Source: Candidatus Hadarchaeum sp. (lineage in GTDB: Archaea > Hadarchaeota > Hadarchaeia > Hadarchaeales > Hadarchaeaceae). From it: 64,000 bases of DNA. A model generated the notes under the pieces. The model worked only from the letters and a program-made list of their open reading frames with translations, made no database searches and had not been told where the DNA came from. A program made the position numbers and the translations under genes. Below are positions 5,573 through 63,744 of this stretch, one piece after another. The stretch lies in assembly GCF_038871235.1 (NCBI RefSeq), contig NZ_JAVZIN010000004.1:20030-84029 (forward strand). Reading direction: 5' to 3'. Positions within the stretch are counted from its first letter, which is position 1; each line of letters starts with the position of its first letter.

Positions 5573-5580
5573 AAGACAAA

Positions 5581-5766: not shown

Positions 5767-5787
5767 CAGCCGTAACCAAAATTAATT

Positions 5788-6996: not shown

Positions 6997-7000
6997 TTTG

Positions 7001-8417: not shown

Positions 8418-8527
8418 AATTACAATTATTCTTTATCTTAACTTTAGGTTATCAACTTAGGCGCATTTGGCTTCAGGCATAGTTTCATTAATTTGGTGAA
8501 TGGTGGTTGGGTTTTTGAGTTCGATTT

Positions 8528-9451: not shown

Positions 9452-9560
9452 CCTAACCGCTCCTAGAAAAGTTCAGTTTGCGTGGATTTAAATGGGCCAC
9501 TTGCCGTAGTCCAAGCGTTTTCAGAGGTTTTTTAAGTCTTGGTGCAAATTACTGGTCTGT

Positions 9561-9716: not shown

Positions 9717-9772
9717 TAACTAATTTCTATCACCATCACCACAACAACTTTCTTAAGTAGCGGTAGGAATAT

Positions 9773-11050
9773 GTGTTGAGGCATATTATGGGAGCGAGAA
9801 TATCGAGCTTGAAGGCAAGAAAAATATTAGACAGCCGGGGTAATCCCACCATTGAGGTAGTGGTCGGTATCCGCGATAATGGGGGAGATTTGTTCTTTGG
9901 TAGGGCAGCGGCACCGAGCGGGGCGAGCAAGGGCAGGCTTGAAGCGGTGGACTTTCCCGTAGGCGGCGTAGACAAGGCGCTGGAAAAAGTCGTTGAAATT
10001 GCACCCAAGTTGTCTGGGATCGATGCCTTTGATCAGGTTAAGGTTGATGAAACTCTTCGCGAGCTTGATGGGACACCAAATTTGTCAGTTCTAGGTGGCA
10101 ATACTACCGTGGCCATTTCCATGGCAGTGGCCAAGGCGGCTGCTTCGGCCAGAAAAATGCCGCTTTATCAGCATCTTGGCGGAAATGGAGGGTTTGAGCT
10201 TCCCTATCCTCTGGGGAATGTCATTGGTGGAGGAAAACATGCGGGAGGATATGCCCCGGACATCCAGGAATACCTAGTAATAGCTACCGGGGCGAGAAAG
10301 ACTTCAGAGGCCATTTTTATCAATGCTAGAGTTCACAAGAAAGTTGGCGAAATGCTCAGCGAGGCAAATAGCTCATTTACTCGGGGAAAGAGTGACGAAG
10401 GCGCTTGGTCACCCAATATTTGTAATGAGGGCGCACTTGAGTTTTTGGCTAGGGCCTGTGAGCTGGTCAGCGACGAGACCGGCGTTGAGGTGAGGCCAGC
10501 GTTAGATGTTGCGGCGAGCAGCTTCTATGATAGCGAGAAAGATCTATATGTTTACAAGCGAGAGGCAGTGACACGAGATCGGGGAGAGCAGCTCGATTTT
10601 ATTCTCGGCTTGATTGAAAAGTTTAAGCTCTTTTTCGTTGAGGATCCCCTTCACGAGGGAGACTTTGAGGGATTCGCCGAGCTGACAAAAAAGGTTGGAA
10701 ATGAATGTCTCATCTGTGGCGATGACATTTTTGTAACCAACGTCGAAAGGATTGAGATCGGGATCAGGTCCAAGGCCGCTAACGCGATCATCATCAAACC
10801 AAACCAGATTGGGACGCTGACCGATACCTTTAAAGCGGTAGAGCTGGCAAGGCGAAATAAATACGTGCCGGTAATCTCTCACCGCTCTGGGGAAACCACG
10901 GATGAGACGATTGCCCACCTTGCAGTGGCGTGGCATTGTCCGATGATAAAAACGGGTGTGGTTGGCGGTGAGAGAATCGCTAAGCTTAATGAACTAATCC
11001 GCATAGAAGAAGAATTGGAAAATAAAGCAAGGATGAGTAGATTGAGATGA
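9773..11050 (+). CDS. eno: Enolase
   Basis: [12 protein letters not shown]..., [18 protein letters not shown] motifs; alternative start at ATG 9788. Confidence 0.9.
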
Positions 11051-11676
11051 ATGAGGCAGAATTTGGCGAGGGAGCGGCAGGTCTGATAGAATTTGATGTC
11101 TACCTGTCGAGCGGAGTGCACATAGGTACTAGGCAGAAGACCGGAGCCATGTCACCCTTCATCTTCCGGGCTAGGCCTGATGGACTTTATGTTTTGGATA
11201 TAAGGAAGACGGATGAGCGCATAGCCGTGGCTGGAAAGTTCTTGGCAAGATTTAACAAGTCCAAGATCGTTGTCGCTGCTGCGAGACAGTATGGACAGCG
11301 GCCGGCGCAGCGTTTTTGTGAGGTCACTGGAGCCATACCGATGATTGGGAGATTCATCCCGGGGACCTTCACCAACACCCACTATAAGGGATACATGGAA
11401 CCCGAGGTATTGGTCATTGCTGACCCGATAGCGGATGAACAGCCGCTTCGGGAAGCGGCTCAGGTGGGTATTCCCGTGGTGGGGCTTTGTGATACCGATA
11501 ACGAAACAGCGGACGTTGACTTGGTGATTCCTACCAATAACAAGGGACGCAAGGCGCTGGCGTTGGTTTTTTGGTTACTCGCCAGGCAGGTTCTCAGGGA
11601 GAGAGGTGAACTTTTACCAGACCAGCCGTTCGGAGTCCAGGTTGAGGAGTTCGAAACAAAGGCTGGCGGTGAATAG
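11047..11676 (+). CDS. rps2: 30S ribosomal protein S2 (uS2)
   Basis: [41 protein letters not shown] matches the archaeal S2 core; the eno-rps2 linkage is a conserved archaeal arrangement. Confidence 0.85.
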
Positions 11677-12516
11677 TTGAGACCACCTGTGGTTGCAGGC
11701 CAGTTTTATGCAGGCACAAGATCGGAGCTGTTGAGGCAGATAGAGCAGTGTTATCTCAGCAGGTATGGGCCAGGTAAGCTGCCAAAGGTGGGTAAGAGGA
11801 TGATGAGAACGATAGGGCTGGTTTCTCCGCATGCGGGCTACATGTACTCAGGACCGGTTGCTGCTCACGGCTTTTTCCGAGTTGCCGCGGATGGTCTTCC
11901 TGCTAGTGTCATCATTTTGGGCCCAAATCACACCGGCGCCGGGTCCGGAGTTTCGATAATGACATCGGGAAAATGGAAAACCCCCTTGGGTGAGGTTCAA
12001 GTCGACGAGGATTTGAGTAACAGGATAAGGATCGCCTCGGATATCATCGATGACGACGCTGTGGCCCACGCTTACGAGCACTCAATTGAAGTGCAGCTAC
12101 CGTTTCTCCAGCATCTCTTTGGAGGCGAGTTCAAGATAGTTCCCATCTGTATGATGCTGCAAGATGAGAGGACAAGCTTGGAGGTTGGAGATGCGATAGC
12201 CGGGGCCGCTGCGGAAAAGGACGTTCTCATTATAGCTTCAACCGATTTCACTCACTATGAGCCGCAAAGGACGGCCGTGGAGAAGGACAGAAAGGTAATT
12301 GAAAAGATAATAGGGATGGACCCTCGTGGCGTGATTAGGACAGTGGATGAGGAAGGGATCACTATGTGTGGTTACGGTCCTGTGTCTGCGATGTTACAAG
12401 CCGCGAAAAAGCTTGGGGCGACAAAGGCGGAACTGCTCAAGTATGCCACCAGCGGCGATACGGCAGGTCCGATGGCCCAAGTGGTCGGATATGCTTCAAT
12501 CGCTGTCTCAAAGTGA
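11677..12516 (+). CDS. Memo-like protein (AmmeMemoRadiSam system protein B family)
   Basis: TTG start; RPPVVAGQFYAG... and His-rich Memo1-like blocks (SPHAGYMYSG, HTGAG, EHSIEVQLPF). Confidence 0.7.
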   Translation: MRPPVVAGQFYAGTRSELLRQIEQCYLSRYGPGKLPKVGKRMMRTIGLVSPHAGYMYSGPVAAHGFFRVAADGLPASVIILGPNHTGAGSGVSIMTSGKWKTPLGEVQVDEDLSNRIRIASDIIDDDAVAHAYEHSIEVQLPFLQHLFGGEFKIVPICMMLQDERTSLEVGDAIAGAAAEKDVLIIASTDFTHYEPQRTAVEKDRKVIEKIIGMDPRGVIRTVDEEGITMCGYGPVSAMLQAAKKLGATKAELLKYATSGDTAGPMAQVVGYASIAVSK

Positions 12517-12520
12517 TGCG

Positions 12521-13309
12521 ATGAAACTCTTGATTGTGAAATTAGGAGGAAGTGTGATCACAGATAAAAGAAAACCGTTCGCCATCAAGCATACCGTTGT
12601 CAAAAGGCTGGCAAAGGAGTTGAAAGGGGTTCCGGGGCCTCTTGTCATAGTGCATGGGGGCGGTTCCTTTGGACACCCTTTAGCTCTGAAGTACAGGATT
12701 GCTGATGGATATCGTGAAAAGGACCAGCTCATGGGAGTTTCTCTCACCCATCTGGCCATGGAAAAACTGAACAAATATTTGATCGAAGCCCTGCAGAAAG
12801 AAGGCATACCTGCGATTGCCTTTCAGCCCTCAGCCTGCGTTCTATCTTCTGATGGCCGGATTAAATCTATGGAGCTTGGGCCGCTGAGGAGGATATTGGC
12901 GCTGGGGCTGGTCCCCGTTCTCTATGGCGATGTGGTCTTTGATGTTAAAAAGGGCTTTAGCATACTTTCTGGGGATCAGCTGGTCTCCTATCTGGCGAGA
13001 AAGTTGGGTGCTACGCGGGTGGTGTTTGGAGTTGATGTTGATGGGGTTTACACGTCCTGTCCTAAAAGAAATGACCGGGCCGAGTTGTTGCGGGTGATAA
13101 CTCCATCTGACGTGAAGCTGGTGGCTTCTATGGAGAAAGATGAAACCGGCGACGTGACGGGGGGTATGCAGGCCAAGGTGCGGGAACTGCTCGAGCTGGC
13201 AAAATTTGGCGTAGAGGCGGAAATAGTAAATGCAGCCAGAGCCAATGTTCTTAAGGAAGCGCTTCGGGGTAAAAGAGGTCTGGGGACAATAGTAACTGGG
13301 GGTAAATAA
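12521..13309 (+). CDS. ipk: Isopentenyl phosphate kinase
   Basis: [16 protein letters not shown] amino-acid-kinase fold N-terminus, about 260 aa. The track ORF 12347..13309 carries a spurious 58-aa N-terminal extension that overlaps the Memo gene in another frame. Confidence 0.8.
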
Positions 13310-13310
13310 A

Positions 13311-14393
13311 TTGGCAGATAAAACCAGCGGCAGGAAAGATGATCATATAAAAATATGTCTCAAAGAAGATGTTGAAAGCATCCTTAAAGACACGGGATTT
13401 AATGACGTAGAGTTGGTGCACAAAGCCTTGCCTGAGATGAATTTTGGTGATGTTGATCTCACGACTAGCTTTCTCGGTTTCAAACTCAGCGCCCCCATCA
13501 TGATTGCTTCGATGACTGGGGGGAGCGCGCAGGGGAAACGATTCAACACTATTCTAGCTTCCGCCGCTCAGGAGTTGGGTATAGGATTTGGGGTCGGCAG
13601 TCAGAGGGCAGCGATCGAGAACCCCAAATTGGCCGACACCTTTAAGGTGAGATCTGTGGCACCTGATGTTTTTCTGGTGGGCAACCTCGGGATGGCGCAG
13701 CTAGCCCAAGGCTATGGTGTCGCCGAAGCGCGAAGGGCAGTTGAGATGATCGATGCTGACGCGCTTTCCATCCACATGAATCCGTTACAGGAGTTGGTTC
13801 AGCCGGAAGGTGAACCCAGATATCGGGGCGCTTTGGAGAAGTTCTCCAAGGTCTGTGATAGTTTAGATGTTCCAGTTATTGCTAAAGAAACTGGCTGTGG
13901 AATAAGCGCTGAGGTGGCCAAGGAACTTGTCGAGGCCGGAGCTTCAGCCGTTGACGTCAGCGGCGCTGGAGGCACTTCGTGGGCGGGCGTGGAAGCTTTA
14001 AGGGCACCCTATGGTTCTGTTGTTGGGATAACCTTCTGGGATTGGGGCATACCCACCGTCGTTAGCACTGCGGAGGTTTGTATGGCGGTCAGCGTGCCGG
14101 TGATATCAAGCGGTGGCATCCGTTCGGGGCTCGATGCGGCAAAGGCTTTGGCGCTAGGCGCCGATCTGGTGGGAATTGCTTTACCAGTTCTTCGAGCCGC
14201 ACACGATGGTAAAAAAGCGGTCATTAGCTTTCTCAACGACTTCATGGCGGAACTCAGGGCGGCGATGTTTTTGACTGGGTGCAAACGAGTAGCAGACCTG
14301 CGCAGAGCCGGTTTAATAGTAACCGGAAGAACATGGGAGTGGCTCACAGCTCGCGGCTTCAGTCCGAAGAGATTGGGGAGGCGAAGACAATGA
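13311..14393 (+). CDS. fni: Isopentenyl-diphosphate delta-isomerase, type 2 (FMN-dependent)
   Basis: TTG start; [41 protein letters not shown] and [19 protein letters not shown] motifs. Confidence 0.9.
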
Positions 14394-15715
14394 GCGTTGA
14401 AGTGCTTCCCATCGGCGGTTTAGGTGAAGTGGGTAAAAACATGACGGCGCTGGGCTTCGATGGAAACTACATCATCGTTGATATGGGGATAAGACTGGAC
14501 AGCATCATGGCCTTTGAGGAGGCGGAGATAGGAAAGATGAGCCGGGAGGAGCTAATCAATATTAACGGCATCCCTGATGATAATATCCTCCACGGGCGAA
14601 AGGTTAAGGCAATTATCCTTACCCATGGTCATCTTGATCACATTGGTGCTGTGGGGAAGCTGGCCTATGCCTACAACGCCCCCATCTACGGAACCCCCTT
14701 CACGATTGAGTTGACCCGAAGACTATTGCGTGAGGAAAGCGGGGTCAAATTAAAGAACGAGCTCATCACAATTAATCCAGGGGACTCGATAAGAACCCAT
14801 GGAATTGATATTGAGTTCATTAACGCCACTCATAGCATCCTGCACACGGTCTTTGTTTTGGCTAAACGAGACGGTGACTCGGTGCTTTTTGCTAGCGATT
14901 TCAAGTTGGATGAACAACCTCTGCTGGGGGAGAAAACCGACTTAGCTAGGTTGAGACGTTTGGCCAGTGAAGGTCTCTTGGCTGCCTTGATTGGTGCGAT
15001 TAGACTGGATGAGCCGGGACCGACAAAATCAGAGGCGCATGCCCGCCAGATGCTAAAGGAGGTAATGGGTGAAGCTTGTTCCAATAATGGTCTAGTTATC
15101 GCCACGACCTTTTCCTCCCACATCGTCAGGTTGAAGTCCATTGTGGACCTTGCGTTTGATATTGGCCGCACCCCCGTTCTCGTTGGCCGTTCGCTACGGA
15201 ATTACTGCACAGCCGCGATGGATCTGGGCTTGGTGGACTTTCCTCCTGAGCTGAGCATTCACGGGCGTCCGAATGCGGTGTACAATTTGTTGAGGGAGAT
15301 AAACAAGTCCCGTTCTGATTATGTGCTTGTTTGTACGGGACACCAAGGGGAGCCCACTTCGGTGTTGTCAAAGATAGCGAACGGCCAGCTGCCTCTAGAT
15401 ATCCGTGATGGTGATGAGGTGATCTTTTCTGCCAGCGTTATACCTAATCCAATAAATGAATCCAATCGGGAGCTACTCGAGACTAAACTGATGGCAAAAG
15501 GGGCCCACATTTACCGTGGCGTGCACGTTTCTGGACATGCGGGCAGGGTGGATACTGCCGAGTTCATAGAGACGATTAAACCTGACCATTTGATCCCATG
15601 TCACAGCACCTTTGACAAGCTTCGATTGTTGTTTGAACTTGGCCGGGAACTTGGATATGATGACAACAGGCTGCACCAGCTCAGGAATGGTACTTCCCTA
15701 ATTTTGGGTGATTGA
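14390..15715 (+). CDS. Metallo-beta-lactamase/beta-CASP ribonuclease J-like protein
   Basis: [19 protein letters not shown]-terminus and HGHLDHIG motif; ATG overlaps the fni stop (ATGA); this MBL gene between idi and GGPPS is a recurrent feature of the archaeal isoprenoid operon. Confidence 0.75.
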
Positions 15716-16715
15716 TGTGGATGTATTGAAGTATCTGGAAGAATGTGCGGCTTTGGTTGAGCCTGAGATCAATCGCTGGATACCAAGGGAGGTTCAGCCT
15801 GAGGTGTTGGTCAGGGCCATGCGACATTTGATTGAGGCCGGCGGAAAAAGGCTGCGCCCCTGTTTGACTATGACTGCCTGCGAAGCAGTTGGTGGTAAAA
15901 AGGAGGACGCAATCGAGACAGCCGCTGCTTTGGAGCTGTTTCACAACTTCACCCTGATTCACGATGATATCATGGATCACGATGAGTTCCGAAGGAACGT
16001 TAAAACCGTACATGTCATCTGGGGTGAGCCAATAGCGATAATCGCTGGGGATGCGTTGTTTGCTAAGGTTTTTGAAGCAGCAGCGGCAAATGCCAGCCGG
16101 CTTGGGATGAACTTGGAAAGAACGGTGGAACTGTTCAACACATTGAGCAGGGCGAGCTTTGAGCTATGTCAGGGACAGGTGCTTGACATGTTGTTTGAAA
16201 AACGTGATGACGTCACCGAAGAGGAATACATGCGGATGATCAGTGGCAAGACTGGGGCCCTTACTGAAGCGGCCACAAGGGTCGGTGCCCTGTTGGGAAA
16301 TGCCTCGAGAGAAAAAATTCAAGCGCTTTCCAGTTATGGTCGGCTGATTGGGGTGGCTTTTCAGATGCAGGATGATCTCTTGGGAGTCTTGGGTAAGCAG
16401 GAAAAGTTTGGAAAGCCCATAGGCAGCGATATAAGAGAAGGAAAGAGAACATTGATAATTGTAAAGGCCCTCACCTCAGCCCCGGAACGGGAAAAGAGAA
16501 TTTTATTGAAAGCTTTTGGAAAGAGCAATGCGACTAATGAGGAGATTCGTAAGGCGATAGAAGTTCTGAAAAAAGTTGGGGCCGTTGAGTATGTCGCCGA
16601 GAAAGCCCGCAAAATGGTTGCTAAAGCAAAAATGAAACTGAAAGTTCTGCCTGACTCAAAGGCTAAGGAGGCGTTACTTGGGATTGCTGATTTTGTTGTT
16701 GAACGGGAATTCTGA
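15708..16715 (+). CDS. idsA: Geranylgeranyl diphosphate synthase (polyprenyl synthetase)
   Basis: GTG start overlapping the upstream stop; first and second aspartate-rich motifs (LIHDDIMDHDEFRRN; FQMQDDLLG). Confidence 0.85.
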   Translation: MIDVDVLKYLEECAALVEPEINRWIPREVQPEVLVRAMRHLIEAGGKRLRPCLTMTACEAVGGKKEDAIETAAALELFHNFTLIHDDIMDHDEFRRNVKTVHVIWGEPIAIIAGDALFAKVFEAAAANASRLGMNLERTVELFNTLSRASFELCQGQVLDMLFEKRDDVTEEEYMRMISGKTGALTEAATRVGALLGNASREKIQALSSYGRLIGVAFQMQDDLLGVLGKQEKFGKPIGSDIREGKRTLIIVKALTSAPEREKRILLKAFGKSNATNEEIRKAIEVLKKVGAVEYVAEKARKMVAKAKMKLKVLPDSKAKEALLGIADFVVEREF

Positions 16716-49161: not shown

Positions 49162-49896
49162 TTAGGTCACCTTTGAGTCCTTCCAGAGGTATTCAAAATA
49201 TTCCTTGGCAAACTTGGCCAAGCCGATTTCATTCGACCATATTCCTAACAGTTCATTTCCGCTTCCTAGGATGAGCAGCACCTCTTGTCCATCCACGACG
49301 ACACCACCACCGAAGAGGTTTTCCCTTTTCCTGATTTCTAACTTTCGCGGCAGCTCCAAGCTGCGGAGATTAAGCTTCTTTGACGCCAAGATCCTGACGG
49401 GAATTTGTTTTGCTTCCAAGAGTGAGAGATAAGATTTCAGGCCGGATATCTCCTGAGGCACGTTCGGTAGCGAGAGCAGGACTTCAATCCCGGCGCGGGT
49501 AAGCATCTCTCCAATTTTGGTGAGGATATTTTTTTCACCACGAATCACCCAGACATCTGGTCGCTTTACCTCGGCTCTTCTTGAATAAAGCGGTTCAAGT
49601 TCCTTCAATAGCGCCTCTCCAGCCTCTTTGAGCCTTTTCTCCTCCTCAGTCTTCACGATTTTCACCACTTCAGCCGGATCCCTGGAGCGGTATCGGCTAG
49701 GTCTGCCAGCTTGGGCTTCTACCCATCCACGCGCCTCAAGCCTGGATAGAATGTCGTAAATTCTTGAGTAGGGGACGTTTGCCAGTTTGCTCAGTTCACC
49801 AGCGGTTGAAGGACCATTTGAAACTAAGGCACAGTAAACTCTCGCCTCATATTCGGTCAGGCCGAACTCACGCAGGAGCCGGTGAGCCTTCTCCAT
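49162..49896 (-). CDS. TrmB-family transcriptional regulator
   Basis: N-terminal wHTH LTEYEARVYCALVSNGPSTAGELSKLANVPYSRIYDILSRLEARGWV; start set at ATG 49896 (MEKAHRLL) to avoid overlapping the divergent radical SAM gene. Confidence 0.7.
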   Translation of the reverse strand: MEKAHRLLREFGLTEYEARVYCALVSNGPSTAGELSKLANVPYSRIYDILSRLEARGWVEAQAGRPSRYRSRDPAEVVKIVKTEEEKRLKEAGEALLKELEPLYSRRAEVKRPDVWVIRGEKNILTKIGEMLTRAGIEVLLSLPNVPQEISGLKSYLSLLEAKQIPVRILASKKLNLRSLELPRKLEIRKRENLFGGGVVVDGQEVLLILGSGNELLGIWSNEIGLAKFAKEYFEYLWKDSKVT

Positions 49897-49963
49897 AGCA
49901 CCACTTTTCATATTGAGAGAAGTTTGGCAATGCTTAAAAGTTACCCCTTTTAGTGGTAAATTG

Positions 49964-51565
49964 ATGGCCATGAAGGAATTGGCAAAGACCGGGTCCGTCT
50001 GCCCGCAGTGTTTGAGAATTCTTCCCGCGCAGATCATTGAGCGCGATGGAAAAGTTTGGATCAAGAAGGAATGTCCGGAGCACGGTGTTTTTGAGGACCT
50101 CTACTTTGGCTCTTATGAGTGGTATCGGCGAGCCCAGATCTTTGCCCGCGACGGCAGAGGGGTGCTGAATCCACAGGTTACCAAGGAAAACCCTGTTTGT
50201 CCTTCTGACTGTGGTTTGTGTAAGATGCACATGAGCCATACCGCTTTGGCGAACATTGTACTCACTAATCGTTGTGATCTTTCCTGCTGGTACTGCTTTT
50301 TTTATTCAGGCAGGGTGGGCTATGTTTACGAGCCCACTTTTGGTGAGATAGAAGAAATGGTTAAAACCCTGAAGTCGGAGCAACCGGTGCCGTGCAACGC
50401 AGTTCAGCTCACCGGGGGAGAGCCTTGTCTTAGGGAGGACCTAGTGGATATCATAAAGATGGTCAAGTCATATGGTGTGGATCACGTTCAGCTGAACACA
50501 AACGGCATCAGGCTGGCGTTAGACCCGGACCTCGTTGAAAAAGTTCGGGCGGCTGGTGTCAACACCCTTTATCTTAGCTTCGATGGAGTTACTGAGAAGA
50601 CTAATCCCAAGAATCACTGGGAGGTTCCCCAGCTCATAGAGAACTGTAGAAAGGTTGGCATGGGTATTGTTCTGGTGCCCACGGTGATAAAATCTGTAAA
50701 CGACCATGAAGTTGGTGACATCTTAAAGTTCGGGTTCAAGAACATTGACATCATCCGCAGCGTGAATTACCAGCCAGTTTCTCTTGTGGGCAAGATGCCA
50801 CGTGAGGAGCGCGAGCGCTACCGCATCACCATTCCTGATGTCATAAAGAATATTGAGGAGCAGACCGATGGAATTCTTAAGATGGATGATTTCTTCCCTG
50901 TTCCGACCGCGTTGATGATAAGCGATTTCGTCGAGGCCCTGACGAAAAAGCCAATGTACCAGATGAGCAGCCATTTTGCCTGCGGTGCTGCCACCTATGT
51001 TTTCAACGATAACGGCAAGATGCTGCCGCTGACTCATTTTATTGATGTCCAGGGCCTGCTTGAATACTTGGCTGAGAAGTCGGAGGAACTTCGTGCCGGA
51101 AAGAGCAAACTGCTAGTTGGGGCCAAATTGCTTTATAGCATCGGGAAGTTCGTTGATAAAAAGAAGAAACCGAAGGGTCTGGATATCGACCGCATAATAT
51201 TCAACGCGTTAATAAAACACGAGTACAACGCGATAGGTCAGTTTCACATGAAATCTCTTTTCATCGGGATGATGCACTTTATGGATCTCTATAATTACGA
51301 TATTGAGCGGGTCAAGAGATGCTGCATCCATTACGCGATGAACGACAATCGGATTATTCCCTTTTGCGCCTTCAACGTCATTCCGGAGTGGTACCGGGAC
51401 AAGAACCAGGCGGCGCAGGGTATCTCGTTTGAGGAGTGGGAGAGAAAGACAGGAAGACCGCTGAAACAGGACCTTTATAAGCGCGATGCGGAAAAATTAA
51501 AGGCATCTGAGGCTTACAAGAAGTTTGTTTGGCAGGTGGAGGAGATAAAGTCCGGCAAGTTTTGA
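49964..51565 (+). CDS. Radical SAM protein with N-terminal zinc-ribbon/rubredoxin-like CxxC...CPEHG motif; candidate tetraether lipid synthase (Tes/GDGT-MAS-like) family
   Basis: CxxxCxxC at NRCDLSCWYCFF, N-terminal VCPQC...ECPEHG, Cys-rich C-terminus (CGAATY, CCIHY, FCAF); about 530 aa. Family call is from recalled domain architecture and the adjacent carS, not an alignment. Confidence 0.5.
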   Translation: MAMKELAKTGSVCPQCLRILPAQIIERDGKVWIKKECPEHGVFEDLYFGSYEWYRRAQIFARDGRGVLNPQVTKENPVCPSDCGLCKMHMSHTALANIVLTNRCDLSCWYCFFYSGRVGYVYEPTFGEIEEMVKTLKSEQPVPCNAVQLTGGEPCLREDLVDIIKMVKSYGVDHVQLNTNGIRLALDPDLVEKVRAAGVNTLYLSFDGVTEKTNPKNHWEVPQLIENCRKVGMGIVLVPTVIKSVNDHEVGDILKFGFKNIDIIRSVNYQPVSLVGKMPREERERYRITIPDVIKNIEEQTDGILKMDDFFPVPTALMISDFVEALTKKPMYQMSSHFACGAATYVFNDNGKMLPLTHFIDVQGLLEYLAEKSEELRAGKSKLLVGAKLLYSIGKFVDKKKKPKGLDIDRIIFNALIKHEYNAIGQFHMKSLFIGMMHFMDLYNYDIERVKRCCIHYAMNDNRIIPFCAFNVIPEWYRDKNQAAQGISFEEWERKTGRPLKQDLYKRDAEKLKASEAYKKFVWQVEEIKSGKF

Positions 51566-55827: not shown

Positions 55828-56886
55828 GTGAAATTGATGAAAAAAAGGCTTGGTTTTTTTAACAAGAGGTCGATCTCAGTTTTCATACTTTTGTGTTTGC
55901 TGACAGTAATAGCGGCTTTTTTGTTGTTGCGGGAAAACTTGGACTCGATGCTGTGGGCCCTATACCGGGCTAATCTTTTTTTCCTGTTACTGGCGGTTTT
56001 CACGTATTTATTCGGATTGTTGTTTTGGTCTTTGCGTTGGCGTCTGACTCTCGCTACGTCAGGGTACATAGTTCCGATCAGGAGCATCTATGTCATCATT
56101 TTGGGCGGAATTTTCATAAACAACATAACGCCTTTCACCTACGCAGGCGGAGATCCGATTGCTCGGGCTTATATTCTTAGAAGAACCCAAAATGTGCCTT
56201 ATTCAAGCGGCTTTGCCACGATTCTGTCGGAATACATCATGGACTTGCCGGTATATGTTTCGCTGTTGATCTTCGGATTTTTAATTTCCCTGAAACAGTT
56301 TGATCTTTGGTATGGGATTTTCGTTTTTCTAGTCTGGCTGTTTTTTTTAGTTGGATGGAGCGTTTTCTTCTTCCATGTGTTATCAAGTGCCACAGGTGCC
56401 AAGCGGATAGCTAGGGTGACCTCAAAACTGGCGAAGATCTTTCATCGCAAAGTGAAAAAGGCGGGATTGGAGCGCAGCATAAAGAGGTTCTATCGGAGTT
56501 CCGAGGAAATCATAAAGGACGGTAGAACGATCTTTGGCATCACTGTTCTTACTGTCACCATCATAGCATTGGCCATTTCTAGGTTATACTTCATCTTCCA
56601 GGCTTTTGGCTACATGCCTTCTCTCCCGATGTTGTTCTTTGCCTTGACCCTTCCCGCGCTTGTGGGATTGATACCCGTGCTCCCTGGGGGATTGGGCACA
56701 GTGGATGCCACGATTTTGTCCGTTTTCCTTCTTTTCGGTGTCCCGCTTCAAGTGGCAATAAGCGCCACGTTGATCGAGAGGGCGATAACCCTTGTTTTCA
56801 GCACAATATTGGGGGCAGGTGCAATTTCCTATTTAGGGATAAAGCAGGGCAATGCTAGAATATCAAGAGCAAAACGGCCGCGATGA
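55828..56886 (+). CDS. Flippase-like membrane protein (UPF0104 / lysyl-phosphatidylglycerol synthase TM-domain family)
   Basis: Eight or more TM helices, positively charged loops, family-typical GG...P and GxxD patterns; heads a glycosyltransferase locus. Confidence 0.5.
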   Translation: MKLMKKRLGFFNKRSISVFILLCLLTVIAAFLLLRENLDSMLWALYRANLFFLLLAVFTYLFGLLFWSLRWRLTLATSGYIVPIRSIYVIILGGIFINNITPFTYAGGDPIARAYILRRTQNVPYSSGFATILSEYIMDLPVYVSLLIFGFLISLKQFDLWYGIFVFLVWLFFLVGWSVFFFHVLSSATGAKRIARVTSKLAKIFHRKVKKAGLERSIKRFYRSSEEIIKDGRTIFGITVLTVTIIALAISRLYFIFQAFGYMPSLPMLFFALTLPALVGLIPVLPGGLGTVDATILSVFLLFGVPLQVAISATLIERAITLVFSTILGAGAISYLGIKQGNARISRAKRPR

Positions 56887-57573
56887 AAAGCCCGCCCTCC
56901 AGCGCTAGGACCTTTTTGTCGGTCAGATAGGTCCAGAAGTCATAGGGTAGCACCCTGATTCCGTAGAACTTTTTGCTTAGCGGGTAAAGGAGGCGCCTTC
57001 CCTTTTCATCGAAGGACTCGGTTAAAACGTGGATTATTCCGCCCAGAGAAAATGAAATGGCAATATTCCAGCTGTTGCTCCAGCCGATGGCGCTTAGCCC
57101 CAGATAGAGGAACGGCAATATTATCAAGTAAAGAAAGATAGTGTGCAGGATTGTGGAGGCATGGGTTTCATTGATCGGGTTTTTAGGGGTTTTCTTCCTC
57201 AGCAGCGTTGGGAAGACGTCAAAGTTAGGAAAACCGCTTCCGATGAGTAAGGCCACCAGATTGATGTTCCCTGAGAAAAGGCCGTAGATGATTAGTGGGA
57301 TGGAAACGTGTCCTATTAACGTTTTCTCAGCTCCTTGGCCATCTTGATCATGGCTATGAGGAACGGCGGCAGAAAGGGCGCGATTACTACCAGCGTGTAG
57401 ATTCCTATTTCCCGTATCACCAGCGCTAGCAGGGTTAGACCCATGAAGATCCAGATGACAACGTAACCGGCATTTTCGCGCATCCATTTCCTGAGTTTGA
57501 CCCTCATACCTGATCCAACCTTTTTAAACTTCGTGTTTTGATTTAATGACTTTTGCGTCATCTCTTTAAGCAC
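56855..57573 (-). pseudogene. Membrane-bound metal-dependent hydrolase-like protein (YdjM/DUF457-like) split into two overlapping frames
   Basis: Track ORFs 57316..57573 (2-TM N-terminal segment ending ...MAKELRKR*) and 56855..57487 (...LIGHVSIPLIIYGLFSGN...) join into one continuous protein if the T4 run at fwd 57322-57325 were T5. Confidence 0.45.
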
Positions 57574-57599
57574 CCATCCAGATGAATTTAGCGGTAGGG

Positions 57600-58754
57600 A
57601 TGAGAATTCTACACGTTAACCCGTTTTACTATCCGTATCAGGGCGGTACTGAGAAATACCTTTACGATCTGTGCAAGCGGCTGGCTAGGAGGAATTCCGT
57701 GAGCGTGATATCCTCAAAGTTTGGGAACAATCCCGAGTTCGAGATTATCGAAGGAACCAAGGTTTACCGGATAAAGAGCATCGTCCTGGAGAAGCTACCT
57801 CCATTTTTACCGCCACCCCTAGCGATACCGATCTCATTTCGCCGCAACATTCTCAGGATCTGTGAAAAGGAAAGGCCTGACGTGGTCCACATCCACAACA
57901 GATTCTTTTTGAGCTATTCATCCATGGTGCTGTGGAAGAAATCGTTGGGTGCACCACTTTTTATCACCCTTCACAATGCTAGGCCTGTGGGCATAAATGA
58001 GGAGACTGATTTTCTAGGGCAGCTTTTTGATGATTACATTGGACATAGGATAATTCGAAGTTGTGACCGGGTTCTCGCCAACAGCCGGTGGACGCTGGAG
58101 ACAACCTTGCCCAAGGATTATCCTCGGGAGAAGGCAGAGATAATTTACAACGGAGTTGACACCCGGAGGTTCAGGCGGATAGATTCAAGTCTTAAGGACA
58201 AGCTGGGCTGTGAGTTTCTTTCCACGACCGTTTGCAGGTTGCTACCGCAGAAAGGGGTCAACTATCTCATTGCCGCCATCAAGGATATTGAGGAAGACTA
58301 CAAGGCTGTGATAGTGGGTCGGGGCCCATGCCTCGGTGAGCTAAAATCTTTGGCTAAAAAATTGGGCGTAGATAAAAAGGTTGAGTTTGTCACCAGTCAT
58401 CTGACGGATGAAGAGTTGGTTAAATATTACTCTGCCAGTGATTTCTCAGTACTTCCTTCCCTCTGGGAGCCTTTCGGGATAACCTTGATTGAGGCAATGG
58501 CCTGTGGCTGTCCCATAATCGCCACGAATGTCGGCGGAATTCCTGAGGTCGTCACCAGTGACTGTGGAATCTTGGTGAGTCCTAGAAGTTCCAATGAACT
58601 TGCTTTGGCCATTAACAGGCTCATCGGGGATAAGAACCTCAGGAGAAAAATGTCCAGAAATGCCCGTAAACGGGTTGAGAAGTACTTCGACTTTGATCTG
58701 ATTGCTGAAAAGGTTGAACAAAGCTATCGGAGTTATCTTGAGGAATCGGGTTGA
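57600..58754 (+). CDS. Glycosyltransferase family 4
   Basis: GT4 (GT-B) C-terminal EPFGITLIEAMACGCPIIATNVGG motif; ribosome-binding site GGTAGGG before ATG 57600. Confidence 0.8.
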   Translation: MRILHVNPFYYPYQGGTEKYLYDLCKRLARRNSVSVISSKFGNNPEFEIIEGTKVYRIKSIVLEKLPPFLPPPLAIPISFRRNILRICEKERPDVVHIHNRFFLSYSSMVLWKKSLGAPLFITLHNARPVGINEETDFLGQLFDDYIGHRIIRSCDRVLANSRWTLETTLPKDYPREKAEIIYNGVDTRRFRRIDSSLKDKLGCEFLSTTVCRLLPQKGVNYLIAAIKDIEEDYKAVIVGRGPCLGELKSLAKKLGVDKKVEFVTSHLTDEELVKYYSASDFSVLPSLWEPFGITLIEAMACGCPIIATNVGGIPEVVTSDCGILVSPRSSNELALAINRLIGDKNLRRKMSRNARKRVEKYFDFDLIAEKVEQSYRSYLEESG

Positions 58755-58783
58755 AGTTAGCATTTTTTCAAAGGTGATTTTTT

Positions 58784-59488
58784 GTGTATCAACTGTCTGA
58801 AAAACCGAAGATAACGATAGTGGTCCCGGCCCTAAACGAGGAGAGGCTGATTGCCCAGACATTGGAAAATGCTTGTTGCGTAGCCCCTGAAGCTGAGATC
58901 ATTGTTGTCGATAGTGGCTCCACAGACAACACAGCCAGAATAGCCGCCCAGTATGCGAGGGTCTATCACAAGGTTGGTAATGTGGCGCAGGCGAGAAACT
59001 TTGGCGCAAAGATGGCCACCGGAGAAATCATCGTTTTTTTGGACGCGGATACTCTTATAACCAAGCAATTCATGGATGAGGTTATTCGCGCTTTCAAGAA
59101 TCCTGAGGTCGTCGGAGCTGGAGGCTTGATTATGCCCCACTTCAAGGGGGTTTTGGTTGAACTCATCTTTTACTTTTTCAACCTTTTGGTACTAGCTTCT
59201 TTTGCTTTTTTAGGCCCCTTTCTTGCGGGAACTTGTGTCGCTTACAAGAGAGACCCGTTTTTTGAGGTTGGGGGTTTCAATGAGCAGCTGGTGGCCTCTG
59301 AGGATTTCGATCTGTGTCGGAGAATTTCCAAGAAGGGCAGGGTAGTCTTTCTTAGGAAGATTGTTGTAAGAACATCGAGGAGAAGGTTGGAGAAGCTGGG
59401 GTTAATGGGGCTGGTTCTTGACTGGGCCAAGGTCACGGTTCATTATCTGAGCGGCAGAAACCCCACGAAATACGGCAGTTTTAGGTGA
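58784..59488 (+). CDS. Glycosyltransferase family 2 (dolichyl/polyprenyl-phosphate sugar synthase-like)
   Basis: ITIVVPALNEE, VVDSGSTDNT, FLDADT (DxD) motifs. Confidence 0.8.
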   Translation: MYQLSEKPKITIVVPALNEERLIAQTLENACCVAPEAEIIVVDSGSTDNTARIAAQYARVYHKVGNVAQARNFGAKMATGEIIVFLDADTLITKQFMDEVIRAFKNPEVVGAGGLIMPHFKGVLVELIFYFFNLLVLASFAFLGPFLAGTCVAYKRDPFFEVGGFNEQLVASEDFDLCRRISKKGRVVFLRKIVVRTSRRRLEKLGLMGLVLDWAKVTVHYLSGRNPTKYGSFR

Positions 59489-59502
59489 CCCAACCGAACA
59501 AA

Positions 59503-60600
59503 TCAAAGATGGGCTTGGTAGAACTTCTCAAGTTTTTTCGTGCATTCGGTTACGGAAAATTTTTCGCTAGTTTTTATCGCCTGAGTCTGCATTTTGGGGG
59601 ACGGTTCATAGGAGTTTAAGATTTGCGCCAGCTCCGCGATGTTTCCAGGGCTAAAGAGGTAGCCATTTTTCCCATCTTTTATAATCTCAGGTATTGCGAG
59701 CGAGTTGGCACCGATCACTGGGCACCCGCAGGCCATTGCTTCCACCACCACCAAAGCCTGAGTTTCCCCAGTTGAGGCTATGACAAAAGCATCCGCGGCC
59801 GAATAGTAAAGGGGCTTTAGCTTTTCCGGAACATAACCAGTAAATTGGACCTTTTTCTTAAGCTTGAGCTTGTCCCTCAATTTTCTCAACTTTTCAGCGG
59901 CTGGACCTCGACCCGCAATGATCAGTTTACCATCAACCTCAACAAAAGCGCGGATGATGATATCTATATTTTTTTCGTGGCTTAGTCGCCCTAGGCTCAG
60001 GAAGATTTTTTCACCATCATCCAGTCCCAGCGATTCCCGGGCGGTTTCCTTTTTTTCTGGCCTGAAAAAGTTGGTGTTTATCCCTGTGGGTATGACTGAA
60101 ATGGTCTTTTTGATGTGGTGGGAGACCAAGACGCTCTTTAACGCACGGCTCGGGACAATGATCCCTTTCTGCTTGTTGTAAAAAATTTCACAATATTTCC
60201 AGATGACTTTTTCCATTATTTTTTTACCCAGTGGTGCCACATATCGGACGTATTCCGAGAGCAGGGTGTGGAAGGTCGTAACGCGGGGAATTTTTTGGAA
60301 ATTGGAGACCCGCCACCCGAAGAAACCCATCGTGAATGGAGAGTGGCTATGGATGATGTCCAGCTTGGGCACCGACTCTCTTCCCTGAGGCACCGCAATT
60401 CTGAACTCAGGATAGGGCTTGAAGGTTACCGCTGGATAGGAATAGACTTTCATCCCCCCGCATTCCCTGACCTTAGTCTTGGGGCAAAAGATGAAGACCT
60501 CATGCCCACGTCTAATCAGTTCGGGTCCTGTGCTTAACAGCGAGGTCACCACACCATTTTTCTGTGGTAGGAAGGTGTCCGTAAAGAAGCCTATGCGCAT
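59503..60600 (-). CDS. Glycosyltransferase family 4
   Basis: MRIGFFTDTFLPQKNGV N-terminus, ETQALVVVEAMACGCPVIGANSLAIPE C-terminal motif. Confidence 0.8.
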   Translation of the reverse strand: MRIGFFTDTFLPQKNGVVTSLLSTGPELIRRGHEVFIFCPKTKVRECGGMKVYSYPAVTFKPYPEFRIAVPQGRESVPKLDIIHSHSPFTMGFFGWRVSNFQKIPRVTTFHTLLSEYVRYVAPLGKKIMEKVIWKYCEIFYNKQKGIIVPSRALKSVLVSHHIKKTISVIPTGINTNFFRPEKKETARESLGLDDGEKIFLSLGRLSHEKNIDIIIRAFVEVDGKLIIAGRGPAAEKLRKLRDKLKLKKKVQFTGYVPEKLKPLYYSAADAFVIASTGETQALVVVEAMACGCPVIGANSLAIPEIIKDGKNGYLFSPGNIAELAQILNSYEPSPKMQTQAIKTSEKFSVTECTKKLEKFYQAHL

Positions 60601-60603
60601 GTT

Positions 60604-62028
60604 TTATCCCCCCCACAGCTGTTTGATTGATTTCAGCCCTCTTCCCGAGCGGAGGTTGGCCAGCAGAATTTTCATCCGGTATTCGCTCTTTAAGGTTTTC
60701 CATATCTGTGAGATCAGGTAGCTTGGTCTTTCGATAAATTCTTGATAAAATCCGTTCACCATTTCATTCAGTTCTCCTTCGTTGAGAAGGGAAGGGAGGA
60801 CACTGACAGCAGGTACGGCGGCATCCCAGTACTTTCCCTCGTCCAGTTGACCATCCTTTACAGCTCGGTTCCACAGCTCCATTCCGGGCGAGAGGTTTAG
60901 AAGGTTCATCTGGGGAAAGTCCATTTCCCTTAAGCTGAGGGCAAAATCAAAGGTTTTTCTGACGTCTTCTCTCGTTTCAATGGGTGCCCCGACGATAAAG
61001 GAGCCAATGACGTTCTCAATCCCTGCTTTCTTGGCGTTTGAGACCGCCTTTCTGCTCATCTCCGGAGTTATATTTTTTCCATAATAGTCCAGAACCTTTC
61101 GGCTGGCGCTCTCAATTCCAAAGTAAATAGTCCGACACCCGGCGCGGGACAATTTCTTCAAAGTCTCTTCAGACGCCTGATCAACCCGCCCCTCCGCCCA
61201 AAGGTTAAGCTTTACCTTGCGGGTCCTCAAAATTTCGCAGATTTTTTCGACGCGCTTTCTGTTGAGGAGCAGGTTATCATCCACGAAGCCAACTTCCTCA
61301 TACCCTTGGCTGTAAAGTTGCTCCATCTCCGCGGCAACGTTTTTCGGGGACCTGAATCTAACCCTTCTGAGGGAAAATGCTGAGCAGGCGCAGTACCGGC
61401 AGGCATAGGGGCAGCCTCTGGATGAGAGCAGGGTGGTGAATTTTCCTGAGGTGCCAAGTAGTCCGACCAGCTCCGAATGATACTCCTGTTCCAACAGCGA
61501 TCGGTCGGGGAATGGTAGCTTGTCCAAGTCCTGAATTGGTTCCTCAGGCGGGTTTTTTATCACCCTATTTTTCTTCCTGAAAGCGATGCCTTTTATCCGT
61601 TTTATTTCATTTTCCTTTTCAAGGGCCCGGACCAGTTCTGTGAGGGTTCTTTCGCCCTCGCCGAGAACAACGAAGTCAACGATGGAATAATTTTCCAGCA
61701 ACCTCTTGTACTCAAAAGTGGATTGATAATTTCCAAAGATGAGCCTCACTTCAGGATTTTTTTCTTTCACTGCTTTTGCGATTTTGATGGCTTGCCTAAA
61801 TGTGGGCGTCAGAGCGCTTATTCCCACGATGTCCGGTTTTTCACTTTTTACGCGGTCCGCGAGCCTCTCCACAGGTGATCCTTCTCGAGCGTTGTCTATG
61901 ATCTTGACCTCGTGACCATCCATCTGCAGCACCGATCCTAAATAAAGCAGACCTAGAGGAGGCCAAGCCGCTTCATTTTCAATCCGCTCTTTCTCCCCAG
62001 TATTGGAATTTATCAAGACCATCTTCAA
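60604..62028 (-). CDS. Cobalamin-binding (class B) radical SAM protein
   Basis: N-terminal B12-binding-like Rossmann region (KIIDN...DIVGISALT), CxxxCxxC at RGCPYACRYCAC, 474 aa. Confidence 0.7.
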   Translation of the reverse strand: MKMVLINSNTGEKERIENEAAWPPLGLLYLGSVLQMDGHEVKIIDNAREGSPVERLADRVKSEKPDIVGISALTPTFRQAIKIAKAVKEKNPEVRLIFGNYQSTFEYKRLLENYSIVDFVVLGEGERTLTELVRALEKENEIKRIKGIAFRKKNRVIKNPPEEPIQDLDKLPFPDRSLLEQEYHSELVGLLGTSGKFTTLLSSRGCPYACRYCACSAFSLRRVRFRSPKNVAAEMEQLYSQGYEEVGFVDDNLLLNRKRVEKICEILRTRKVKLNLWAEGRVDQASEETLKKLSRAGCRTIYFGIESASRKVLDYYGKNITPEMSRKAVSNAKKAGIENVIGSFIVGAPIETREDVRKTFDFALSLREMDFPQMNLLNLSPGMELWNRAVKDGQLDEGKYWDAAVPAVSVLPSLLNEGELNEMVNGFYQEFIERPSYLISQIWKTLKSEYRMKILLANLRSGRGLKSIKQLWGG

Positions 62029-62096
62029 ATATCCACAACCTGAATTAATATCCAGATTAGGTTAAATTTATCAGGTTAAAGGGATAGGTGGGACAG

Positions 62097-63005
62097 ATGA
62101 AAGTTCTGGTTACAGGTGGTGCGGGGTTTATCGGCTCGAATCTTGTTGAGGAGCTGGTCAGGTCAGGTGAGGATGTCATCGTTTTGGACGATTTCTCTAC
62201 CGGGTCGCTGGAGAATTTAAGAGCTGTAGAAAAGCAGGTGCAGATAGTGCGGGCCTCCTGCCAGCGGCTTTTGGAACTGAAACTTCCGGAGGTGAAGAAG
62301 ATATTCCACCTCGGGATCCCATCTAGCTCTCCGATGTATCGCGACAACCCGCTGCTGGTCGGGGAAGCCATTCGTGGCTTTATCAACGTCTTTGAGCTGG
62401 CGAGGAGAAACCGGGCCAAGGTAGTTTATGCTTCCACCTCCAGCCTGTACCGAGGCTGTCCAACGCCGCATCGTGAGGACAGAATATCCGAACCTTTTGA
62501 TTTTTACACCGAGGCCAGAATTGCCATGGAGCGCTTGGCCCGGGTTTATCACGAGCTCTATGGCATTCCTTCGGTGGGCATGAGGTTCTTCTCGGTTTAT
62601 GGTCCACACGAGCGCGCCAAGGGCAAATATGCGAACAACGTCTCCCAGTTTCTCTGGGCCATGCGCGAGGATAAGTCCCCTGAGATTTACGGTGATGGCG
62701 AACAGACGCGCGATTTTGTCCACGTCAGTGATGTGGTGCGGGCCTGTCTTAAAGCGGCCAATTCTGATTTGGGCTGTGAAGTGATAAACGTCGGCACCGG
62801 CAAGCAGACGAGCTTCAACCGTGTGATCGAGTTGCTCAACAAAGCGCTGGGAAAATCGATAAACCCCATTTATGTACCCAATCCGGTGAAAAACTATGTT
62901 TACCACACTTGTGCCGATCTGACCAAGGCAAGGAAGCTACTAGGATACGAGCCAACCGTGACCCTGGAGGAAGGCATCAAAAGACTAGTCGCGGTGGAAG
63001 GATAA
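62097..63005 (+). CDS. NAD-dependent nucleotide-sugar epimerase/dehydratase (extended SDR)
   Basis: VTGGAGFIGSNLV Rossmann motif, YxxxK region (YASTSSLY...). Confidence 0.8.
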   Translation: MKVLVTGGAGFIGSNLVEELVRSGEDVIVLDDFSTGSLENLRAVEKQVQIVRASCQRLLELKLPEVKKIFHLGIPSSSPMYRDNPLLVGEAIRGFINVFELARRNRAKVVYASTSSLYRGCPTPHREDRISEPFDFYTEARIAMERLARVYHELYGIPSVGMRFFSVYGPHERAKGKYANNVSQFLWAMREDKSPEIYGDGEQTRDFVHVSDVVRACLKAANSDLGCEVINVGTGKQTSFNRVIELLNKALGKSINPIYVPNPVKNYVYHTCADLTKARKLLGYEPTVTLEEGIKRLVAVEG

Positions 63006-63069
63006 AACCAGCTAATTTAGTGATGGTAGTAGGTTTAGAGGAAGACCACCAAAGCAATGTTGGGGTTCG

Positions 63070-63744
63070 TTGTTGAATAAAAACTGGCTGCACCGGCATA
63101 GAAAGCTGACAGCAATAGTTGGTGTTGTTATCGTTGGCCTCGGTTTTTCACTGTTGGCCGCCTACACCACCAATCTCCCCAGTGATTTCTGGAGAAGCAT
63201 TGGTTATCCTGGTATCTTCCTGTTAAGTTTTATCGGAACCAGCTCGATAATTATCCCTATACCCTACACAGTGGTTTTATTGGCGATATCGCCGGCCTTT
63301 GACCCTCTCCTCTTCACCTTAGCCGCCGGTGCTGGCTCGGCAGTTGGGGAAATGGTAGGATATCTCCTCGGATTCTTGGGTAGGAATGTGCTGGGGGAAA
63401 AGCGTCGCAACCAGATGGATGCGATGCTGAGAATTTTCAGGAGATTCGGACCAATTGCCGTGTTTGTTTTTGCGCTTACCCCGCTCCCCGATGACTTGAT
63501 TTTTATCCCGTTGGGGCTCATGCGATACAGTCCTTGGAGGACCTTGGCTGCCTGTGTTGCTGGTAAGTTTTCTATGGTCTTCATTATCGGGGTTGTGGGC
63601 AAGGCAGTGGGAGAATTGTCTGGTGATTTGCCCCTTACCATTTTGATATCTATCTTGTTGGTCTTGATCATCATCGTGATCTTCAAAATTGACTGGGTAA
63701 AGCTGGCCGAAAAGTACGCGCCGACATCGGGTCAGTGCTGCTAA
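63070..63744 (+). CDS. DedA/SNARE-associated (VTT-domain) membrane protein
   Basis: GYPGIFLLSFIGTSSIIIPIPYTVVLLA...GYLLG pattern of DedA-family proteins. Confidence 0.6.
   Translation: MLNKNWLHRHRKLTAIVGVVIVGLGFSLLAAYTTNLPSDFWRSIGYPGIFLLSFIGTSSIIIPIPYTVVLLAISPAFDPLLFTLAAGAGSAVGEMVGYLLGFLGRNVLGEKRRNQMDAMLRIFRRFGPIAVFVFALTPLPDDLIFIPLGLMRYSPWRTLAACVAGKFSMVFIIGVVGKAVGELSGDLPLTILISILLVLIIIVIFKIDWVKLAEKYAPTSGQCC

Follow-up and report, generated by a model that had tools for sequence, protein, structure and literature searches.

A gene encoding a class B (cobalamin-binding) radical S-adenosylmethionine (rSAM) enzyme in Candidatus Hadarchaeum sp., an uncultured archaeon of the deep subsurface, is located directly upstream of, and in the same predicted operon as, a glycosyltransferase (GT) gene whose product most resembles lipid GTs, within a contiguous block of eight genes for glycosylation-related and membrane proteins. 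The block occupies positions 55828-63744 of the window, namely the 64,000-nucleotide stretch of DNA analyzed here (positions 20,030 to 84,029 of contig NZ_JAVZIN010000004.1, forward strand, RefSeq assembly GCF_038871235.1). Neighborhood conservation analysis confirmed the GT context of rSAM to which the initial annotation had drawn attention; this context is operonic and shows order-level conservation in Hadarchaeales. Profile scores and tree placement suggest that the enzyme belongs to an uncharacterized orthogroup, referred to here as clade H, that is claimed by no curated family. The reading tentatively favored is that the block represents a lipid-linked glycoconjugate module, the product of which is most likely a glycosylated archaeol or tetraether lipid, and that rSAM would modify either the lipid itself or its head group, with cobalamin-dependent C-methylation as the most probable reaction.

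Open reading frames (ORFs) were compared to Pfam and NCBIfam profiles, and the scores were evaluated against curated cut-offs. All eight ORFs initially assigned to the block were recovered at their positions with the domains expected of them (SDR, short-chain dehydrogenase/reductase; aa, amino acids):

55828..56886 (+), UPF0104/PplT/LPG_synthase_TM flippase-like integral membrane protein, 352 aa (PF03706, 163 bits; TIGR00374, 169 bits, cut-off 43)
56855..57487 (-), YdjM-like (DUF457) membrane-bound putative metal-dependent hydrolase, 210 aa (PF04307, 39 bits, cut-off 29)
57582..58754 (+), GT4a, retaining GT-B glycosyltransferase, 390 aa (Glycos_transf_1, 144 bits; Glyco_transf_4, 104 bits)
58784..59488 (+), GT2, small and soluble, 234 aa (PF00535, 93 bits)
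59503..60600 (-), GT4b, second gene of the rSAM operon, 365 aa (best NCBIfam match Mgs, 164 bits)
60604..62022 (-), class B rSAM with cobalamin-binding domain, 472 aa (PF02310, 86 bits; PF04055, 103 bits)
62023..62087 (no strand), AT-rich divergent spacer between rSAM-GT4b and SDR-DedA, presumed shared promoter region (read from sequence)
62088..63005 (+), extended SDR, NDP-sugar 4-epimerase-like, 305 aa (PF01370, 145 bits)
63070..63744 (+), DedA/VTT-domain membrane protein, 224 aa (PF09335, 55 bits)

The initial description of these genes as one block holds in that they are contiguous and their arrangement is conserved, but they fall into five transcription units rather than one: UPF0104 (+), YdjM (-), GT4a-GT2 (+), rSAM-GT4b (-), and SDR-DedA (+). 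The rSAM ORF extends from 60604 to 62028, with the ATG at 62022 as the probable start, and the co-directional GT4b gene starts 3 nt past the rSAM stop codon. The rSAM-GT4b and SDR-DedA units diverge from the 65-bp spacer, GT2 begins 30 nt downstream of GT4a, and the 3′ end of YdjM overlaps the UPF0104 gene convergently by 32 bp. The window rSAM is 100% identical to a protein from a Candidatus Hadarchaeum sp. MAG (metagenome-assembled genome), on whose 362-kb contig DedA is the last gene of the block and is followed, just beyond the window, by a class V FBPase gene. AglB, Wzx/Wzy, and initiating phosphoglycosyltransferases were absent from the block in the Pfam scan, and no polysaccharide-deacetylase-type gene was found among the eight ORFs, YdjM being the only hydrolase-like protein. 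In relatives, the 210-aa YdjM frame is retained over residues 12-209 (44-81% identity); MAG annotations divide this gene between a 63-aa ORF read in a different frame and a YdjM protein of 133-147 aa.

Conservation was examined by scanning GTDB species, each represented by a single genome, with an alignment of 22 rSAM family sequences and searching the block proteins by tblastn against the rSAM loci found (designated by L and P numbers), as well as by a second scan of metagenomes with GT4b as the query. Since the arrangement recurs in independent Hadarchaeota contigs at 59-82% protein identity, the juxtaposition of the block genes is not due to chance. The rSAM gene lies between SDR and GT4b in loci L090, L091, L093, L094, and L099, with GT4b starting 4-22 nt from the rSAM stop in relatives, and in the rearranged locus L097 it is found just after GT4b, such that adjacency is retained in swapped order. 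GT4b is the conserved anchor of the block, with orthologs at 62-82% identity that always adjoin SDR or rSAM, and SDR is kept beside rSAM or GT4b in all relatives. At L095, L096, and L100, the SDR/GT4b junction has no rSAM, and SDR and GT4b are separated by a gap of ~60 bp. UPF0104 is present in the block at all Hadarchaeota loci examined, and DedA occurs in most relatives but is missing from L105 and L106, which are basal Hadarchaeales loci. GT2 varies among the blocks of relatives, as does GT4a, for which other Hadarchaeota carry a replacement. The GT4b metagenome scan further established that the whole region from the tetraether synthase gene tes to DedA is syntenic in Hadarchaeota. A GT linkage limited to the nearest relatives was also considered; this view was overturned by the same scan, together with the basal Hadarchaeales loci.

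Hadarchaeota rSAM proteins were grouped by an identity matrix and a rooted neighbor-joining (NJ) tree. Clade I (96.5% support, 67-82% rSAM identity) is GT-linked. Clade II, from Hadesarchaea (64-67% identity), is YchF-linked, its rSAM genes being flanked by a YchF-type GTPase and a 2-hydroxyacid dehydrogenase without GTs nearby, and the two members of clade III that were examined (L005 and L030) lack block genes within 8-10 kb, the rSAM of L005 being located next to a his operon. A basal branch (L094, P0067, and P0077; 59-60% rSAM identity, 100% support), which represents the first split (86% support), retains the complete SDR / rSAM-GT4 / GT2-GT4-UPF0104 / YdjM order. Given that this branch has the full arrangement, the rSAM-GT linkage extends down to 59% identity and would be either ancestral in Hadarchaeales or gained twice there, with apparent loss in two clades. 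Adjacency to histidine biosynthesis genes was observed twice: in the Hadarchaeota MAG locus L005 (his genes 2224-7127, rSAM 8001-9434) and in the Methanomassiliicoccales locus L103 (his genes 1634-6837, rSAM 7001-8419), which could reflect either coincidence or ancient synteny.

The enzyme itself has the class B architecture, with PF02310 at residues 21-132 followed by PF04055 at residues 202-363, and its cluster motif C204xxxC208xxC211 is invariant in 22/22 aligned homologs as well as in all 198 sequences of a larger alignment. An AlphaFold2 model (pLDDT 87.6) matched AprD4, MgmA, TsrM, CysS, OxsB, and TokK as the top structures in a Foldseek search of the PDB, each with a probability of 1.0, a likeness at the level of fold class only. 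AprD4, the best structural match, is a non-methylating diol dehydratase despite its B12 domain; binding and use of cobalamin by the window rSAM are predicted. Neither BchE nor any antibiotic methylase is orthologous to rSAM, in that all of its NCBIfam scores are far under the cut-offs. BchE (TIGR02026, 215.6 bits versus a cut-off of 481) and HpnJ (TIGR03471, 194.7 bits versus 577.6) rank first, with HpnR, PhpK, and other models scoring below them; identification of the protein as either BchE or HpnJ was rejected, as all 36 matches lie far below their cut-offs.

In an NJ distance tree of 198 family sequences (100 bootstraps), the deep nodes of which are unresolved, the window rSAM falls in clade H, supported at 94% (90% in a second run). 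Members of clade H come from Hadarchaeota, MSBL1, Methanomassiliicoccales/Thermoplasmata, Odin- and Promethearchaeota, Bathyarchaeia, and Geothermarchaeota, and its sister is a clade of uncultured Thermoplasmata (81% support). Residues conserved in clade H include N98, F195-T196, C213, Y241, P370, N373, and W384, with C213, directly after the cluster motif (CxxxCxxCxC), occurring in 97% of the clade; Ser or Arg takes its place in the Gmm-like clade and in the sister clade. Six Thermoplasmata loci of the sister clade (L067, L070, L072, L074, L075, and L076) and the Elusimicrobia locus L080 have a protein of ~470 aa adjoining rSAM; this neighbor looks like a PaaK/F390-synthetase-type adenylating enzyme, hinting at a different substrate there.

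The initial expectation that enzymes of this class modify archaeal tetraethers agrees with published work on GrsA/B and Gmm (PMC13459092, PMC11214058). Gmm, the methylase of glycerol monoalkyl glycerol tetraethers (GMGTs) in Thermococcus guaymasensis (Garcia et al. 2024, PMC11214058), is likewise an archaeal class B rSAM, similar to the window protein in length (about 450-475 aa) and identical to it in the order of domains; some Gmm homologs, including that of Geoglobus acetivorans, occur without gms, and MoeK5 is stated to be similar to Gmm (PMC11214058). In eight Archaeoglobi loci (L051, L052, L053, L057, L059, L060, L062, and L063), the gene for an rSAM homolog (36-39% identity) overlaps by 4 nt with the gene before it, which encodes an AhbD-like SPASM rSAM that is N-terminally extended and Gms-like (e.g., 8547-10001 and 9998-11350 in L052), an arrangement that matches the gms-gmm pair (PMC11214058). 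The homolog without gms was also found here in Geoglobus acetivorans, and in A. profundus (L089) a second B12-rSAM directly follows the rSAM homolog instead of the Gms-like partner. One Gms-adjacent Archaeoglobi protein shares 39.5% identity with the window rSAM (299 bits, BLASTP) as well as its NCBIfam ranking. These proteins, which correspond to Gmm, are among the best matches of the window rSAM beyond clade H and are its nearest functionally anchored relatives. A phmmer search with the Archaeoglobi protein retrieved 20,702 representatives at E <= 1e-30, the best 150 of which all score at least 311 bits; this suggests that the window rSAM would rank at or just below those 150, a comparison across differing scoring methods.

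A simple equation of the window rSAM with Gmm was not upheld, given this dense cloud of homologs and the placement of the protein in a separate clade. The Archaeoglobi anchors group with sequences from Methanopyrus sp., Thermoprotei, Geothermarchaeota, Bathyarchaeia, Freyarchaeota (Asgard), and a few bacteria (Sedimentisphaerales, Chloroflexota), a composition that resembles the published Gmm family, and clade-H sequences fell inside the smallest clade uniting Archaeoglobi and Methanopyrus in 0/100 bootstraps; the tree does not include Tg-Gmm or the 'Gmm2' clade of the Gmm paper. Bathyarchaeia and Geothermarchaeota are represented both in clade H and in the Gmm-like clade, which makes the two paralogs. 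In contrast to Gmm, which frequently has gms as a neighbor, the window rSAM lacks such a partner and has residues of its own (N98, C213, Y241, P370, and W384). No Gms-like gene is found beside rSAM in any Hadarchaeota or other clade-H locus examined, and the only gms-like match in the window is weak (25% identity) and lies inside Tes.

Among the remaining proteins, GT4b has the membrane-lipid glucosyltransferase Mgs (alpha-monoglucosyldiacylglycerol synthase) as its best NCBIfam match (aligned end to end, below the cut-off of 400), with further matches to GlcNAc-PG synthase and GTs of lipoteichoic acid anchors. The NCBIfam matches of GT4a are more generic and pass no equivalog cut-off, and GT2 matches TIGR04283 best, with 122 bits versus a cut-off of 182, its best solved homolog being the Pyrobaculum GT2 6yv7 (E 8e-13). 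The best solved homolog of SDR is a Thermotoga UDP-glucose 4-epimerase (4zrm, E 3e-43), with WbpP, MoeE5 (6kv9, E 1.5e-34), and UXS within its top 15. The HpnL model scores 36 bits on the UPF0104 protein, versus a cut-off of 196, and orthology to GpgS was not found, as NF053787 gives 104 bits for GT4a and 105 bits for GT4b versus a cut-off of 480.

Two kinds of known system share the logic of the block. In the tailoring of moenomycin unit F, the UDP-GlcA 4-epimerase MoeE5 and MoeGT1 act with the B12-rSAM C-methyltransferase MoeK5, a combination of epimerase, lipid-directed GT, and class B rSAM that is also seen here, and the substrate there is an isoprenoid-glycerate glycolipid. The moenomycin route differs in being a bacterial antibiotic pathway with other GT families, and the window block lacks phosphoglycerate-lipid genes. 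In bacteria, the GT and UPF0104 operons GpgSDF and HexSDF make and probably flip glycolipids (PMC12713373), UPF0104 is the flippase domain of MprF (bioRxiv 10.1101/2022.03.11.483950), and in archaea, arCOG00899 neighborhoods are glycosylation-linked, with UPF0104 beside or fused to AglD-type N-glycosylation GTs (PMC5898192). The block resembles these in having a cytoplasmic GT4 and a stand-alone UPF0104 (COG0392)/PplT protein in one neighborhood; it differs from GpgSDF/HexSDF in having a YdjM-like hydrolase instead of their deacetylase, together with DedA, SDR, and rSAM. The initial statement that this is not a textbook cluster thus fails for the GT/flippase part, which is of a known module type because UPF0104 stands beside GTs both in GpgSDF/HexSDF and in archaeal N-glycosylation loci (PMC5898192, PMC12713373).

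Genes of core lipid synthesis lie upstream, at a distance of about 4-7 kb from the block, with synteny between Tes and the block in L090, L091, and L093:

48651..49160 (-), CDP-archaeol synthase CarS (PF01864, 187 bits)
49162-50064 (-), TrmB-like regulator, beside Tes and CarS
49913..51565 (+), tetraether synthase Tes (NF045702, 727 bits, above the cut-off of 450)

The operon with a lipid-type GT, the proximity of Tes and CarS, and lipid methylases as the closest anchored relatives of rSAM all point in the direction of lipids. In addition, rSAM orthologs are maintained at 40-45% identity across phyla with differing GT clusters, suggesting that their substrate, for example the core lipid, is conserved as well, and stand-alone orthologs, together with two GT clusters lacking rSAM, suggest that this substrate is probably common to these archaea rather than a cluster-specific product. 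Most class B enzymes are methylases, and C-methylation is favored for this reason. In the modified sugar or glycolipid pathway proposed initially, the GT context is conserved and the action of rSAM on a sugar or head group is putative.

The substrates and reactions proposed for the block are predictions. SDR would provide an NDP-hexose epimer, from which the Mgs-like GT4b would add the first sugar to a free alcohol of an isoprenoid glycerol lipid, and the lineage-variable GT4a and GT2 would lengthen the glycan. Membrane translocation of the lipid-linked product, or of its carrier, may be carried out by UPF0104/PplT and DedA, with some accessory role for the YdjM-like hydrolase. The rSAM, predicted to be co-transcribed directly upstream of GT4b, would cleave SAM reductively at the [4Fe-4S] cluster bound by CxxxCxxC, and the resulting 5′-deoxyadenosyl radical would remove hydrogen from the lipid or glycolipid at an unactivated sp3 carbon. 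Most likely, the methyl group of methylcobalamin bound by the N-terminal Rossmann domain would then be transferred. A Gmm-like site in the isoprenoid chain is the leading candidate, though far from assured; a MoeK5-like site on the first sugar is a possibility of lower rank, non-methylating C-C chemistry is entertained to that same degree, and a site in the glycerol backbone is considered improbable.

Several observations weigh against this lipid-directed reading. Every GT score is below its curated NCBIfam cut-off, a role with dolichol-linked glycans is equally compatible with UPF0104 and DedA (PMC5898192), and the sequences of the GTs, UPF0104, and DedA cannot decide between the two products. 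The best profile matches of rSAM, BchE and HpnJ, are non-methylases that the Gmm-like Archaeoglobi protein ranks alike, and methylation and other chemistry cannot be told apart from the rSAM sequence. Clades II and III have rSAM at housekeeping loci and a GT cluster without it, and none of the loci scanned outside Hadarchaeota have lipid or glycan genes next to the rSAM ortholog: block genes were absent near the homologs in Bathyarchaeia (40-45% identity), Asgard archaea, Methanomassiliicoccales, Thermoplasmata, and Archaeoglobi, and clustering of all neighbors across 83 loci yielded no conserved neighbor beyond lineage-specific synteny. Furthermore, the region from Tes to FBPase is wholly syntenic, including the housekeeping genes for thermosome, FEN1, and PCMT, such that conserved adjacency could partly reflect slow rearrangement instead of selection. 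Adjacency alone is weaker evidence for this reason, and the operon spacing and the order swap in L097 are stronger points. An Omnitrophota homolog (L082, 33% identity) also lies inside a classic polysaccharide operon (1361-15029) with genes for GT1-like, GT2, GT10, and GT4 enzymes, a GFO/IDH oxidoreductase fusion, WecG/TagA, rSAM, SDR, UDP-GlcNAc 2-epimerase, and Bac_transf.

DedA proteins fit the recycling of polyprenyl phosphate, which counts toward an alternative in which the block builds a dolichol-linked N-glycan or a cell-envelope polysaccharide and rSAM modifies its sugar, for example, by GenK/MoeK5-type C-methylation. The AglD-type N-glycosylation GTs to which archaeal UPF0104 domains are fused or adjacent (PMC5898192), the similarity of GT2 to 6yv7, which is an archaeal N-glycan mannosyltransferase-like GT2, the Omnitrophota operon with its WecG, Bac_transf, and epimerases, and the presumed promoter region common to SDR and rSAM are all consistent with it. 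The block, however, contains no AglB, Wzx/Wzy, or initiating phosphoglycosyltransferase, GT4b is most like lipid GTs, and glycan clusters are lineage-variable, yet the rSAM ortholog is kept across phyla without them; this alternative is judged unlikely, if worth serious attention. Somewhat less probable again is that rSAM is unrelated to the GTs and carries out a housekeeping modification of RNA, protein, or a cofactor in a slowly rearranging region. The enzyme is indeed encoded alone or among informational and amino-acid genes in clades II and III, Bathyarchaeia, Methanomassiliicoccales, and Geoglobus, thermosome, FEN1, and PCMT are as syntenic as the GTs, and the protein methylase MgmA is among its structural neighbors; set against this are the tight rSAM-GT4b spacing, kept over about 40% sequence divergence, the survival of the pairing through the order swap in L097, and the lipid methylases that are its closest anchored relatives (PMC11214058).

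The remaining two alternatives keep rSAM on a lipid, and both are regarded as quite doubtful. Cds and HpnJ are ring-contracting rSAMs that act on lipid-bound hexoses (PMC13459092, PMC9385802), the rSAM step lying between two glycosyl transfers on a membrane lipid, and a similar enzyme here could contract and re-cyclize the hexose added by GT4b into an ether-linked, calditol-like cyclitol head group, to be extended by a second GT. The proposed calditol route from GT to rSAM to GT (PMC9385802, PMC13459092) is mirrored by rSAM-GT4b and GT4a/GT2, the NCBIfam ranking of rSAM is headed by HpnJ and BchE, and the SDR (HpnA), GT2 (HpnB/I), and UPF0104 (HpnL) components of the hpn cluster have weakly matching counterparts in the block. 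The HpnJ score (195 versus 578) is nevertheless far below cut-off and the Gmm-like methylase ranks alike, the block has no deacetylase, and the Cds homologs known from Crenarchaeota, Korarchaeota, and Marsarchaeota of acidic habitats (PMC9385802) represent taxa other than those of clade H. Alternatively, clade H could be a cobalamin rSAM methylase of the tetraether glycerol backbone, forming butanetriol and pentanetriol tetraethers (BDGT/PDGT), with the Hadarchaeales GT4 glycosylating the resulting secondary alcohol. The range of clade H, including Bathyarchaeia, Methanomassiliicoccales (Methanomassiliicoccus MAGs), sediment Thermoplasmata, Hadarchaeota, and Asgard archaea, overlaps the shown or proposed BDGT/PDGT producers (PMC13003381, PMC12694404, PMC6147122), and the literature searched, which did not include key primary papers, names no BDGT/PDGT biosynthetic gene, although one may already have been identified. 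BDGTs, however, have been ascribed to a single genus of Bathyarchaeia, in which clade H is broad, and a clade-H copy in M. luminyensis itself was not confirmed.

Elsewhere in the window, the block is preceded by genes for DUF371, PCMT, FEN1, Rpb6, and a thermosome subunit, and then by Tes, the TrmB-like regulator, and CarS. An isoprenoid supply cluster at 12347-16715 (+) encodes a member of the amino-acid kinase family that resembles isopentenyl phosphate kinase, an IDI2-like FMN-dependent dehydrogenase, RNase J, and a polyprenyl synthase of the GGPP type, and a GGR-like FAD oxidoreductase gene lies further upstream at 5788-6996 (+). Two tRNA genes were identified by Rfam at 3855-3953 (+; 99 nt) and 34741-34859 (+; 119 nt), both of which probably contain introns, judging from their lengths; ARAGORN found no tRNA in the window.

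Archaeal tetraether modifications serve as environmental and paleoclimate proxies, and to our knowledge Hadarchaeota have no cultured member from which lipids have been described. No genes have been assigned in the literature searched for backbone methylation, some chain methylations, or unusual head groups. The GT/flippase part of the block is ordinary, and it is the rSAM orthogroup, together with its order-level operon with a lipid-type GT, that is uncharacterized. If rSAM acts on a glycan or is a housekeeping enzyme, the locus would be an ordinary glycosylation cluster. On the favored reading of a lipid-linked glycoconjugate module, the rSAM-GT4b operon represents a concrete two-gene construct and a candidate for a new membrane-lipid modification, and it could give a function to a gene that is found in Bathyarchaeia, Asgard archaea, and Methanomassiliicoccales.

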